Notes: generated by a model from the sequence alone, not told the origin. Shown: positions 5,532-47,933, counted from the stretch's first letter. The stretch: DNA of 64,000 bases from Microbotryum violaceum (GCA_001244265.2 CDLV01000008.1:1364001-1428000); one strand, 5' to 3'. Translations and numbers: made by a program.

Positions 5532-8500
5532 AGGAGAGGTTGGAGCTCAGATTGGCGCGATGAAGTAGATGTCCCTCCCTCCCTATCCAAGCAAAAACCA
5601 AACCCCCAAAAAATCACAAGTCCCTTTTCCCTCCTTCTCAGTCTCCAAAATGTCTCCCAAACACGCCAGAATACTGAACCTGTTTTCTCTCGCTCTTTTT
5701 GCCATTCCTCCTCATAGGCTTCCGTACTCCCCAGGAGCCTCGGGTTCTTTGCGCCGGCGGGCATTGTCGCCCTTGGTTCGAGCTTCTGCCACATCACGAT
5801 GACACACAGCGAAAACGGATCCCCTTGGCCCTCTCCTGGACTATACCGTGAGTTTTCCACTCCTCTCAAGGGCCGGGTCTGTCTTCTCTTTCGGTCGAGC
5901 GACCCCGTGATCTCCTGTTCAAGGCCGGCACAAACTGCCTGCGTGGCTCGCCTCTCCTTGCTTTGCTGCTCGCTCGGAGTCGCGGCCCGCGGCGGGTGAC
6001 TCGGGTACCGAACCGCCATACACATCCACACGCGAGCGAGGTCCCACCCAATGACATCACCGTCGTGGGCCTCATGCTCCTTCTTTCCCCAGTATCTGCG
6101 GTGATTGGGAACCACCTGCACGTACAAGGGGACTCGAGTGTGCGTTCCGAGATTGGGAGTACGCCGCAGGGAAGCGAGGCCCCTGCGGAAGGTATACCCC
6201 GCCCTTGTCTCCAGCCGCGCGCCGGTGTTGACGGCCACCCGCCCGCGCTGCACCCGACCGAGGCGTGTCCAATGGACTGTCACATGCTCCGTGACTTTCC
6301 CCGGAAATCTCTGGATTGTGTGTTTTTGTGCGAAGTAGGCCTGTTTCGCAGTTGCAGTCATTGGAATGGGGGTGATCTGGGGTCGTGCGGTCGCGAGGGG
6401 GGCCGACTTTGGTAACCGAAAAGGGGTTTGGAATCCGCAGTGGAGATCCAGCGCAGACGGGTACAAGGGGTATGTGATTGCTGCGGTCGCAGGGGGTTAC
6501 ATTCCCCCTTTGGACCACGTGAATCATTTGGATTGAGCGGGATGTTTGTGCCATCGGAGGCCTTGTTCGACGCGTCTCAAAGAATTAAGGGGCTTCAAGG
6601 AGTATGGCGGTCTCAGGGGGGGCTGAAGTCAAAAGATCGAAGAAGGTTCAACTGTACGACTATAATCGGATTCGCCTGTACAACACATGTACCATCACCA
6701 ACGACTCATCCATCTTTTCCCGATTCCTTGTGTATAATCTTCAACCTTCCTTTCATTCGTCTCTGGGAGGGAGCAACCGTGGGTGGGGGGACTTGAACTC
6801 GGATGTATCGGGTTGGTCTGTTCTGCTAGTTACAACGCATCAAGCGGCGGTTGTGGTCATCATCGTGCATGCTGGGTAGCATCTCCTTTAGTTCCGTAGG
6901 GGGTTTTCTCGTCTTGCAAATTAGCGATGAGTTTCATACAAAAAAAATATATAGTCAAAAATAGTCGCTGATCTGATTTGATCATGATTGAGTCCCTCAC
7001 CGTGTTGACGTTCAACGTCCGATCGATCAAGAACGCAGTCAACCAAGTCAAAATCATCCGCTATCTAAAAACCCTTCGGCCGGCCCCTGCGGCCATTCTC
7101 CTGCAAGAGCACCACCTCAGCTACAACGCGTCGCGCGAAGGCTTCGAGAGTGCTTGCCCAGGGGCTTGTATTCGTTTCACTCCTCATGTCCTTACCCTCA
7201 TACCCGATGGCTCACCTTTGGCGGGCCATCTCCTTTCCTCTACCCCGGTCGTCTTTGCAGGAGCTCCTCGTCTCGACGGCCGGATTCTGCGCTCGGTGTT
7301 TCGTCTTGAGGAGCTCGATGTTGAGATCATCAACATGTACGCGCCGGTACAGGAGGACGATCGTCGCGACTTTTTCGGGCTCCTGCATTTCAACGCCCCG
7401 AGACCCAAGACTCTTCGGATCTTGGCCGGCGATCTCAATGATTGTCCGGATGTATCGGTCGACCGAGTGTCCATCACCGATCGCGCTTGGACTCCTGTAT
7501 CGCACTGGCAGACCTTGCTGTCAAAGATCGCGTTCAAGGCACTCGACACGGTCCGACATGTCCATTCTTGCACCCCCGCATTCACTCGTCCTCACTACCG
7601 TGGTAGAGGGGAGGAGCGAAAGATTTGCTCGTGGTCGCGGATCGACTATATTCTTGTCCAATGCAGTTGGGCAAACCGGTTGTTGAGCGCTTCTACGCTC
7701 TTCGACGCGCCCTGTTCGGACCACAGACCTGTAGTTGCGACTTTCGCATTGCCTACGTCGAACGCTGATGCCGAACCCCCCTTTCTCTTCCCTCTACGAG
7801 CGATTTCATTTCGAGGCTCAACCCAACGGTCTTTGACGATCAAGACTTTGTCGCATCGATTCCCGGGGTCGTCGACGAGGTCTATCGAAGGCTCGAGGGG
7901 ACCGCTCCGCTCGGCGACGTCTATGACGCCGCTCTGCGGGCGGTTGCAGTCGCTGGCCATGCACGATACCGCTCGACTCGTGCCGACATGCGCCGACTGC
8001 GGGCCGAGAGCCAATCCGTCATGGAGGCTTTGGAGGCACGCGGTGAGCACATGAATGAGGCCGAGCGCGATGCGTATGCTTTTGCCAAGTCGCGGTTGGA
8101 CCAGTTGGCGGTAAAGGAGGCTCAGTGGCTGCGCATTCGTGCGCATGTGCCGTCAGTCGACTCGAGGGAAGGTCAATCGGCAAGCATTCGCACGCGTCTC
8201 AACCGCCGGAGTCGCCAGACGAGCATCGTCTCGCTGGAGGATGTGGATGGCACCGAGACCGTTGACATGCAGGAGGCGCTGGGCATTGCTTCACGGCACG
8301 CACAGTCGCTCTTCACGCCGGACCCAGCTCGTGGCGACCCGACGAACCCACGTCGGTCCCTGCTCGACCCTATTCGCGCGGCGAAATGCTACGATGACGA
8401 CCGCTCGGACCCTACGTTCGGTCGTCGGCTGCTCCTTCAAGCCAGAGTGGCGCTTGACGAGCCCTTCAACCTTTCCGAGGTCGAAGCGGCGTTGAAGAAG

Positions 8501-9511
8501 ACGGATTCGGGGCGATCACCGGGGCCCTCGGGCATTCCGTACGAGCTCTTCAAGGCGCTGCCAACCTACTTTGCTCCCAAGCTGTTGGATTTGTTCAACT
8601 CGATTTGGGAGGGGGGTAAAATGACGGCGTCCTTGGCAGAGGGGCTGGTGCGGCTTTTGCCCAAGAACAAACCGGGGGCCAATCTGAAATCACTGGGGGC
8701 ATATCGACCGATCACACTGCGCGAGACGACCTACAAGGTCCTCAGCAAGGTCTTGGTGGCGCGACTCAATGGGGTGCTCGGCGAGCTTTTGCCGCCGGCG
8801 CAACACGGGTTCATGCCATCAAGACGTTCAGCAGACGCGGGAAGTCATCTCACTCTCCTTCTCGAAAAACTCAAGTCGCTAGGCACTGAAGTTTTCCCCG
8901 AGGGCGCCCTCTTGTCCTTGGATCAGCAGAGCGCGTACGATCGGGTCGATCACGCATGGATCTTCGACGTCTTCGAGGCCTTTGGCTTTGGTGAGCGTTT
9001 CATTTCCCTGCTGCGCGCTCTGTACGATCCCGAGACTCTGGGGGTGCGCTACCTCATCAATGGGTTCCCCACGGAGTTGGTGCGGTTGCTGTGTGGTCTC
9101 GGTCAGGGGGATCCCCTCTCGTGCCCGGTTTGGAACATCACGTTCCAGCCCTTCCTCGACGCCCTCGTTCGGCGCGGGATCGCGCTCGACCTGCAGAAGG
9201 TGTGGCCAGGGGGGCCGCGTGGGCAGCTTACGCATCTGGCGTTTGCCGACGATGCTGTGGTGGTAGTGGAGTCACCGGCGGCATTGTCGAAGCTGGAAAC
9301 GCTGTCGCAGACGTGGTACGAGGCAATCAACGGGAAGACCAACACGGACAAGACGCTGGTGCTACCACTCGGACCGAACTGGCTTCGGGACGAGACTGCG
9401 CAGGCGCTGCCAACGGTGCAGGAGGGGGAGAGCTTCAAGTGGTGCGGCTATGCCTTCTTTCGCCACGGTGACTCGAAACTGTTTTGGACCCATGTTCTTG
9501 ACAGGATCAAG

Positions 9512-9755
9512 TGTAGAAATCGAACAGCGATGTGCTGAACGAGTTGGCGGCAGTGGCAAGCCAATGAGTTCGTAATCAAGTGGAGGTTGCAATAAAGGAG
9601 TTCTTCACACACCTGAACGAGTTGGCGGCAGTGGCAAGCCAATGAGTTCGTAATCAAGTGGAGAAGAAGAAGGAAAGACGCGATTGGACCGCGCGGCTAA
9701 TACAAATAGAGACGCGCGCTAGGCAGATTTAAGGCAAGAGTAATCTACCTCAACA
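9512..9755 (-). repeat. 3' LTR of copia-1, containing a 51-bp direct repeat at 78-bp spacing
   Basis: Matches 12684-12927; CTGAACGAGTTGGCGG...CAAGTGGAG occurs at 9535 and 9613. Confidence 0.95.
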
Positions 9756-47000: not shown

Positions 47001-47363
47001 GGACTTGGGACTTCGCGGGTCAGGGTAGCTGCGCAGTCGCTCTCTTGTCTTTGTCTCGACCGAGTTGGAAAGTGACGGCGGGGTGGGTCTCTTGTCGTTA
47101 GTCAATTATTTTGTTACTCTTTCTCTTTCTCTCTCTCTCTTCTTCTCTCTCTCATTCGTCTCCTAGGGGGAGCAACCGCTTGGCTGGGGCACTTGAATCC
47201 CAAGTATCGGATTGGTGGACACCGGCCCGTTTCTCGCATCTTGCGGGCGGTTTGTGTTATCATCGTCGACTTCCATCTAGTTTTTTCCGTAGGCCAAATA
47301 GGGGGAACATGACTTGGGGGCAATATGATGAACAGTTTCTACCAAAAAAAAAGAAAAAAAAAA
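44033..47363 (+). mobile_element. Third copy of the composite unit: 42-nt B tag, truncated B (44092-45948), tag string (45949-46142), truncated C (46143-47363)
   Basis: Same breakpoints and tags as 16839-20167. Confidence 0.92.
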
Positions 47364-47933
47364 TCTACAAAAAAAAAAAATCTACAGCACGAGCACGTGT
47401 GGTCGCGCGTGGGTCAGTTGCTCAAGGCGAAAGCCTTGCTGCCCAAGACCGCGTTGCGACCTGCTCGGATACCTCTCAAGGAGGCTCCCCGTCCTCGGTG
47501 CTTCAACTTCTTTGGGCTCACCCGACCGTTCACTGTTCGCAAGCTTCGTCGGCTTGTGAACGTGGTTCGGTTCCCAGGAAGGGAGGATCGTGTCAAGCGT
47601 TTCCGTGATGGGACTCCTCAGAGCGATAGGAAGCGCTTCTGGAGATGGCTTCATGACCGGTTCGCGTCTGCTGTGGAGCAGGACACCCACTGGCGGCTCA
47701 TGTACGACGTGACGCCGACGCGCAAGAGGTAGCATACTCAGGGTCATGCCTCTTCGCCGACGTGTCTGTTCTGCGGCAACGATGCAGCGGTCATCGAGAC
47801 GGTGTCGCACTACTTCTTCGAGTGCGCGTACTCGACCAGCTTCTGGGTGGGGTGCTTCGCATTCTGTTCGACAAGCTGGGCATCGAGGATACCAACATCG
47901 ATCCGTCGACGTTCACTCCGGAGCAGCTGACTA
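47364..47933 (+). mobile_element. TCTAC-A12 tag followed by a family B fragment truncated at both ends; right border of the array
   Basis: 47381-47933 matches 35159-35711 including the TAG nonsense codon; similarity stops at GAGCAGCTGACTA. Confidence 0.88.

Follow-up and report, generated by a model that had tools for sequence, protein, structure and literature searches.

Head-to-tail LINE strings in a Microbotryum genome carry short 3'-terminal tags between poly(A) runs

A 64,000-nucleotide (nt) stretch of Microbotryum violaceum DNA (GCA_001244265.2, CDLV01000008.1:1364001-1428000), hereafter the window, contains a nest of retrotransposons lacking long terminal repeats (non-LTR) from position 1 to ~47.9 kb, and long open reading frames (ORFs) occupy the DNA from ~48 kb on. 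In this nest, pieces of long interspersed nuclear elements (LINEs), assigned to three main families termed A, B and C, are joined head to tail via poly(A) runs (A-runs). Short sequences, here called tags, interrupt these runs, and each multi-base interruption ends in the exact 3' terminus of one of the families. The tags are probably extremely 5'-truncated insertions, made by target-primed reverse transcription (TPRT) into the poly(A) tails of neighbouring elements. A composite piece of the nest was multiplied afterwards by recombination or gene conversion between DNA copies, so that the tags represent fewer independent events.

Terminal tags between A-runs

All 14 LINE pieces, whether full-length, truncated or stubs, lie on the plus strand, as do all 31 A-runs of at least 7 nt, which are found from 6.9 to 47.4 kb. 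A scan of the genic DNA on the right-hand side of the nest (16.6 kb) for A- or T-runs of at least 8 nt found none, and the sole T-run of at least 8 nt in the window sits in a C 3' region. Most 5' junctions (10 of 12) directly follow at least five A. The exceptions are the first B copy (B1), which begins after A5-TAGT(C), and the first TCATAC tag, which begins after unique DNA.

The tags show high identity to the family termini. TCATAC is identical to the last 6 nt of A (6/6) and TCTAC to the last 5 nt of C (5/5). The tag termed the 135-nt B tag measures 136 nt between A-runs. It opens with 6 nt that do not belong to B (CCTAAT), and the remainder (15479-15608) matches the end of the full-length B copy (B2) at 127 of 130 positions, compared with 112 of 130 for the adjacent B1-type ends. 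Similarly, the 42-nt B tag shares 38 of 39 positions with the full-length B end and 33 of 39 with the B1-type ends. Since both B tags are closer to the B2 end than to the neighbouring B1-type ends, they are separate copies imported from the B2 sublineage and not products of local slippage. The truncated C fragment at 15624 also reaches the end of the C reference, at ~80% identity (BLAST).

All 11 tag instances listed in the initial annotation of this DNA are present at the positions given there. That list lacked a second TAGTC at 6962-6966 and the TCATAC-A9 at 30117, which is an extra tag; TCATAC-A9 occurs twice in succession as an exact 15-nt tandem period. The TCTAC at 47381 is ambiguous, as CTAC is also internal B sequence at that truncation point.

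At least 4, 5 or 6 nt of one of the three termini would stand at the end of a random segment with probabilities of 0.013, 0.0032 and 0.00075, respectively. Of 12 TCATAC sites in the window, three precede AAAA, namely the A end and two tags. Of 69 TCTAC sites, six do so, comprising two C ends and four tags. The combination of AGTC with a following AAAA is found 10 times, and because four of these lie away from B ends, TAGTC-A5, a 4-nt match (AGTC), is not above chance. The initial proposal that the tags are family termini thus holds for the A, B and C matches given above and fails for TAGTC-A5. The GTC before the C fragment and the TAGTC before B1 were also considered as B micro-tags and rejected, being too short and inseparable from subfamily sequence or untemplated bases.

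Single bases also split A-runs at 15440, 15614, 16833 and 47353 and in the copies of these sites (A4-G-A32, A5-C-A9, A9-T-A5 and A9-G-A10, respectively). These could be point mutations, sequencing errors or joints of insertions aborted within the poly(A).

LINE families of the nest

The DNA of the window is eukaryotic, with 52-62% GC. The best match of the A ORF2 protein is a Microbotryum silenes-dioicae protein with 99% identity. All 51 named matches, among 53 in total, are from Microbotryum, and close proteins are also found in M. saponariae and M. intermedium. Judged from these sequences, the nest belongs to a Microbotryum anther-smut fungus. It comprises three related L1-like, poly(A)-tailed LINE families. 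It is interrupted by two copia elements and has a tRNA gene in its middle.

Pfam domains Exo_endo_phos and RVT_1 were identified in A (1524-5531), B (6978-9538) and C (39355-42399), and a C-terminal zf-RVT is present in B and C. The A ORF2 is open over 1335 amino acids. Its residues 5-819 are colinear with residues 9-776 of human L1 ORF2p across both domains (E 2.5e-27), a stronger match than to R2 proteins. At the protein level, ORF2 of A shares 56% identity with that of C, and B shares 30-55% with A and C. No RNase H domain was found in the A ORF2 at E values up to 5, which is compatible with L1 and does not place the family in a clade. The 3' tails range from A8 to A32, and 5' truncation is variable, as for L1-like LINEs. 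In domain order and tails, A, B and C have an L1-like architecture, that is, APE-type and poly(A)-tailed.

The extent of truncation is best seen in family B. Taking the full-length copy B2 as the reference (6745 nt), B copies start at reference positions 1, 1776, 4952, 5001, 6616 and 6707 (BLAST). B1 matches this reference at 96.3% and 93.5% identity (BLAST). The full-length B and C copies both open with (T)CCAC and continue into a microsatellite, (AC)n at 30161-30186 and (ACTTC)19 at 36929-37023, which may be a variable 5' repeat typical of the two families.

A metagenome scan with the ORF2 alignment yielded 46 loci, all just 20-31% identical, and these were not used. Among 23 listed sequencing runs from eight studies, 22 contain 0.43-0.68 of the sampled words of 43900-47500, which shows that the families occur in these runs and lends no support to the junctions.

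Duplication of a 3.3-kb composite unit

A composite unit of 3.3 kb occurs three times in the window at 98-99% identity (self-BLAST and alignment): U1 at 13568-16896, U2 at 16897-20163 and U3 at 44092-47358. The unit consists, in order, of a B fragment (from the equivalent of 13568), A22, GCTCTAC, AAAAG-A32, the 135-nt tag, A5CA9, GTC with a 1.2-kb C fragment, A9-T-A5, the 42-nt tag and A16. The stretch equivalent to 15040-16382 (1343 nt), with GCTCTAC, the 135-nt tag and most of the C fragment, varies among the three copies by three substitutions, one indel and the lengths of A-runs.

The units are mosaics of one another. U1 and U2 agree against U3 at 14051-14234, U2 and U3 against U1 at 14343-14834, and U1 and U3 against U2 at 16382-16672. 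All three C fragments share an identical first ~750 nt, and those of U1 and U3 an identical first ~1,100 nt, but they have three different 3' ends and tails. In addition, the junction A9-T-A5-TTG-42-nt tag-A16/17-B fragment follows two C copies that are 98% alike in the last ~75 nt and 45-100% alike per 60-nt bin elsewhere; by binned identities, close similarity of the full-length C to the C fragment of U1 is confined to the last ~75 nt. A junction shared by C copies that are alike just at the end places the breakpoints inside C sequence. Together, these patterns identify the duplication as a DNA-level process, by unequal recombination or gene conversion. A BLAST row pairing 16245-20173 with 43444-47370 (96.8%) was considered as a recombination breakpoint near 43430 and rejected, since its high value stems from the comparison of U2 with U3.

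The duplication changes how the tags are counted. Unit copies contain the sites at 15.4, 18.7 and 45.9 kb as well as those at 16.8 and 44.0 kb, so the recurrences that had been read as repeated insertion events are copies of one another and the 11 instances reduce to six events: TAGTC, GCTCTAC, the 135-nt tag, the 42-nt tag, TCATAC-A21 and TCTAC-A12. Five of these six match the family termini above chance.

The copies also bear on whether the tags arose by chance or as an assembly artefact, through sequencing errors or random mutations in homopolymers. The single-base G, C and T interruptions could have such an origin, and TAGTC-A5 is at chance level. However, terminus matches of 130, 39, 6 and 5 nt are impossible from homopolymer errors, and the tags stand in unit copies that differ by 1-2% elsewhere and were thus assembled more than once from different reads. 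We consider an artefact scarcely credible.

Origin of the tags

The anatomy of the nest, the terminus matches, the common orientation, the adjacency to A-runs and the duplication are observed features, and extreme 5' truncation during TPRT would account for them as follows. An APE-type endonuclease would nick the T-rich strand opposite an A-run, the resulting T-flap would pair with the poly(A) of the element RNA, and cDNA synthesis would start at the 3' end of the element. Long A-runs in this 58% GC DNA are almost solely LINE tails, and new copies would be expected to land in resident tails in the same orientation. With hardly any long A-runs other than LINE tails, the nest should be self-reinforcing and common to three families. 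Successive tail insertions would build head-to-tail strings, and an early stop of reverse transcription would give products ranging from full length down to stubs of 130, 39, 6 or 5 nt, each with a new A-run. Untemplated bases may have been added at the 5' joints of stubs (CCTAAT, TTG, GC and possibly GTC). Insertion into an A-run would set the orientation and leave no visible target duplication, both of which fit the observation. Finally, the composite piece made of the B fragment, GCTCTAC, the 135-nt tag, the C fragment and the 42-nt tag was copied later as DNA between copies of B and C, so that its tags now recur two or three times.

For these junctions, abortive TPRT by different families, which the initial annotation had also proposed, is the best-supported reading, given the exact termini followed by A-runs, the common orientation and the 10 of 12 junctions that follow at least five A. 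From the sequence, we infer that the endonuclease prefers A-runs and that each tag represents a separate TPRT event. Several points weigh against this. Unique DNA (GCCTC) and not an A-run lies directly upstream of the first TCATAC (30117), and the 5' joint of B1 after A5-TAGT(C) is not a clean A-run. The tandem TCATAC-A9 pair and the TCTAC-A12 after a C tail could each reflect one stuttering event or a small duplication. The boundary between U1 and U2 falls exactly at an A-run, and an RNA-mediated read-through copy could give the same boundary. Both the A-run target and the one event per tag are deduced from a single window.

Template jumping is a known activity of LINE reverse transcriptases. 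In a single TPRT event, the enzyme might switch to the poly(A) of another LINE RNA and so leave several stubs per insertion. Stubs of different families lie side by side (GCTCTAC, the 135-nt B tag and the C fragment), extra bases are present at the joints (CCTAAT, TTG and GC), and the exact 15-nt repeat of TCATAC-A9 fits repeated re-initiation. However, the A-runs of 5-32 nt between stubs are equally predicted by sequential tail insertion, the end product would be the same in sequence as that of sequential events, and no feature of the window needs a jump. We regard template switching as an unlikely source of the tags.

A second RNA-based possibility is read-through, or 3' transduction, in which a chimeric RNA of an upstream element and the next fragment is reinserted with 5' truncation, so that the tag is the truncated front of the RNA. 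For example, the 135-nt B end, A5CA9 and the C fragment could be one insertion, and U2 could be an RNA copy of U1. In the window, the C fragment is never parted from the 135-nt tag in the unit copies, and the U1/U2 boundary lies exactly at the end of A16, the site expected for a 5'-truncated insertion. Nevertheless, the different C 3' ends and the mosaic pattern of the three units fit DNA recombination better, and the 42-nt-tag junction behind two diverged C copies, with its breakpoint in the last ~75 nt of C, would not result from an RNA insertion. Micro-tags of 5-7 nt are also left unexplained, and read-through appears quite unlikely. Template switching and read-through are most plausible for the TCATAC-A9 repeat and for the U1/U2 boundary at an A-run.

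The tags had alternatively been compared to those of HeT-A, which would arise by promoting in tandem: the 3' end of one element holds a promoter for the element downstream of it, and new copies carry the upstream end plus oligo(A). Such tags are described for HeT-A in the part of 10.1101/782904 consulted. The full-length B at 30159, which lies behind TCATAC-A9-TCATAC-A21 with unique DNA beyond, looks like a twice-tagged transcript at a new site. However, this is the only one of five junction groups with a full-length 5' end behind a tag; the other four precede 5'-truncated fragments or other tags, and the full-length C at 36921 is untagged and preceded by a complete B end. For a 6-nt tag, transcription would also have to begin just 6 nt upstream of the poly(A) site. 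The endonuclease is retained, a tRNA gene lies inside the string, and genes, including a MUS81-like ORF, lie to the right. The telomere repeat TTAGGGTTAGGG has no match in the window with up to one mismatch. A HeT-A-like origin is highly improbable. With telomere repeats absent from the window, an internal tRNA gene and genes to the right, the nest does not have the composition of a telomeric array. Telomere-type terminal addition and erosion, which also yields A-run, stub and A-run, was rejected on the internal tRNA and unique DNA, the lack of telomere repeats and the retained endonuclease.

In a related scenario, A, B and C would be tail specialists whose 3' ends start downstream transcripts, and the TCATAC pair and the units headed by B stubs would be 5'-transduced tags on chimeric RNAs. 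We consider this very unlikely. If true, it would represent a fungal, non-telomeric convergence on the HeT-A strategy, and the stubs would record donor neighbourhoods instead of failed insertions.

The junctions do not support the chronological log in the form that had been suggested. Any A-run of the array can receive a new insertion, so that position along the string does not give relative age, and DNA duplication and mosaic conversion have reshuffled the record.

Other features of the window

The features of the window are listed in Table 1. Both copia-type elements look recently inserted, because their LTR pairs are 100% and 99.6% identical. Within the copy nested in B1, a 778-nt stretch (11529-12307) equals its own reverse complement at 98.2% identity and forms a large palindrome in this 3.4-kb element. 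An exact 97-bp tandem repeat of 2.8 copies (24704-24979) starts in the 3' LTR of the second element and runs past it.

A degenerate fourth LINE, D, contains RVT_1 at 26473-27270 and a weak zf-RVT at 27409-28269, and shares 24% identity with the A ORF2 (tblastn). Its 3' region carries a 248-bp inverted duplication (28513-28759 and 29529-29776, 95% identity) without a T-run, which is the sole LINE-derived piece on the minus strand in the window.

Between two LINE strings, the tRNA gene stands as an island with ~330 nt of unique DNA (29787-30116). The T-run terminator of the tRNA, read on the opposite strand, accounts for the A8 at 29964-29971. LINE D seems to end ~185 nt beyond the terminator side of the tRNA, and the TCATAC-A9 that starts the right-hand string lies 63 nt upstream of the tRNA 5' end. 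This proximity may be due to chance or may hint at tRNA-proximal targeting (n=1). ARAGORN also called a 'tRNA-Stop (tta)' on the minus strand at 15051-15124, 18376-18449 and 45572-45645, where each of the three unit copies carries the 3' region of B. These calls have no Rfam support, are absent from the full-length B and are probably spurious.

At the right border, the last B fragment ceases to match B at 47933 without a 3' end or tail, and an open frame runs on to 48400. This border resembles the result of a deletion or rearrangement more than a site of insertion.

Table 1. Positions of retrotransposon pieces, tags and other features in the window
Feature	Position	Strand	Remarks
LINE family A	1..6947	+	5' end cut by window start; ends GAGTTTCATAC-A8
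Family A ORFs	ORF1 pieces 2-943, 715-1524; ORF2 1524-5531		ORF2: endonuclease and reverse transcriptase
Junction filler with 'TAGTC-A5' tag	6948..6965	+	TATATAGTC-A5-TAGT(C), between A tail and B1; TAGTC-A5 at 6952-6961
LINE family B, copy B1	6966..15428	+	5'-truncated, starts at full-length-B position 1776, without ORF1; split by copia at 9512-12927; 3' end CCCAGTTAAAC-A22, tail 15407-15428
Copia-type LTR element nested in B1	9512..12927	-	244-bp LTRs, 100% identical; 5-bp target duplication TCAAG; RVT_2 ORF 9745-11523
GCTCTAC tag	15429..15472	+	C terminus TCTAC plus 2 extra nt, then AAAAG-A32; copies at 18753, 45949
135-nt B tag	15473..15623	+	CCTAAT, last 130 nt of B, A5-C-A9; copies at 18797, 45992
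5'-truncated C fragment	15624..16838	+	GTC plus last 1.2 kb of C, ends TTTCTAC-A9-T-A5; copies at 18949, 46143
42-nt B tag	16839..16896	+	3 extra nt (TTG), last 39 nt of B, A16; copy at 44033-44091
U2	16897..20163	+	B fragment, A25, GCTCTAC, 135-nt tag, C fragment with degenerate tail AAAAATAAAATAAAATAAA; 98.2% identical to 13568-16837
Second copia-type LTR element	20593..24785	+	236-bp LTRs, 99.6% identical; gag, integrase, RVT_2
Degenerate fourth LINE, D	~25000..29786 (approximate)	+	Possible end TTTTCTCAAC-A7
tRNA gene	29972..30053	-	Rfam RF00005, 44.7 bits; no ARAGORN call
Two A-family micro-tags	30117..30158	+	TCATAC-A9 (30117), TCATAC-A21 (30132); first adjoins unique DNA
Full-length B copy B2	30159..36920	+	5' end TCC(AC)n; 3' end GAGCCCCAGTC-A17
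Full-length C	36921..44032	+	5' end CCACCTCTACTTCACTTT then (ACTTC)19; 3' end TTTCTAC-A9-T-A5
Full-length C ORFs	ORF1 37346-39355; ORF2 39355-42399, continuation 42056-43372
42-nt tag copy and U3	44033..47363	+	C fragment ends TTTCTACC-A9-G-A10; 98.7% identical to 13568-16838
TCTAC-A12 micro-tag	47364..47380	+	Downstream of a C fragment's own tail
B fragment lacking both ends	47381..47933	+	B reference positions 5001-5553
MUS81-like endonuclease ORF	52965-55535		Among the long ORFs from 48 kb on

Implications

The nest is a clear example of an already known behaviour, that of LINEs targeted to A-runs, with unusually visible micro-stubs and no new principle, and it does not change how LINEs are thought to work. 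Its value lies in the GC-rich fungal genome, which exposes the extreme 5' truncation of TPRT: stubs of 5-7 nt, which would be invisible in AT-rich or mammalian DNA, can be seen between A-runs. Where A-runs are scarce, LINE tails would act as traps for several families, and DNA recombination then multiplies the composite pieces. For annotation, such Microbotryum strings are prone to be mis-called as long chimeric 'genes' or 'nested transposable elements', and junction counts overstate the number of insertion events unless duplicated units are collapsed first.

Comparison with known systems

The following comparisons refer to the portions of the cited sources that were consulted. A literature search (Microbotryum, non-LTR, head-to-tail) retrieved no description of such strings in the genus, and the LINE text of PMC4469406 and PMC10502011, supplements aside, contains none.

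HeT-A elements at Drosophila telomeres also form head-to-tail LINE strings, with short 3'-end pieces and oligo(A) between elements (10.1101/782904; PMC5537684). The HeT-A tags derive from a 3'-end promoter and stand before full-length elements at chromosome ends (10.1101/782904). In contrast, the Microbotryum tag groups precede truncated pieces in four of five cases, the elements encode an endonuclease, telomere repeats are absent from the window, and genes and a tRNA flank or interrupt the strings.

Cnl1 of Cryptococcus (10.1101/2021.08.11.455996) and Zepp of Coccomyxa/Chlorella (PMC3446292) likewise form non-LTR arrays or nested clusters in microbial eukaryotes, and expansion and contraction of Cnl1 arrays by recombination and transposition has been discussed (10.1101/2021.08.11.455996). 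These are single-family arrays, subtelomeric in the case of Cnl1 and one per chromosome in the case of Zepp, and stub junctions are not described in the text consulted. The 3.3-kb unit can be likened to the transposable-element dimers proposed as satellite seeds, which arise by double insertion at the same site, giving head-to-tail copies that recombination amplifies (PMC5932611). The window differs in having only three unit copies and no evidence of a satellite-scale array.

Alu self-insertions made by the L1 machinery concentrate at the poly(A) linker in sense orientation (PMC2836564). As proposed here, the T-rich bottom strand is nicked in the human L1/Alu system, A-runs of resident elements are hotspots, and target duplications are very short or absent in an all-A spacer (PMC2836564). 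The Microbotryum targets differ in being 3' tails and not an internal linker, and the inserts are autonomous LINEs of three families, many of them just 5-130 nt long.

Zorro3 of Candida albicans is an L1-clade LINE that integrates at poly-A tracts, with genomic A-tracts of 9-12 nt near genes (PMC1965478). Like the Microbotryum LINEs, it is fungal, APE-type and poly(A)-tailed and lands in A-runs without large target duplications or deletions. It also shows 5' truncation and 5' extra sequence, and annealing of a T-flap to the RNA tail has been proposed for it (PMC1965478). Its targets are not the tails of other LINEs, and multi-family stub strings are not described in the text consulted (PMC1965478). 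The Microbotryum B and C families also differ from Zorro3 in their 5' ends, TCC(AC)n and CCACC...(ACTTC)n. As in Zorro3, the insertions lie in existing A-runs in the orientation expected of priming at T-runs, as seen in the static evidence of 10 of 12 junctions and all 14 pieces.

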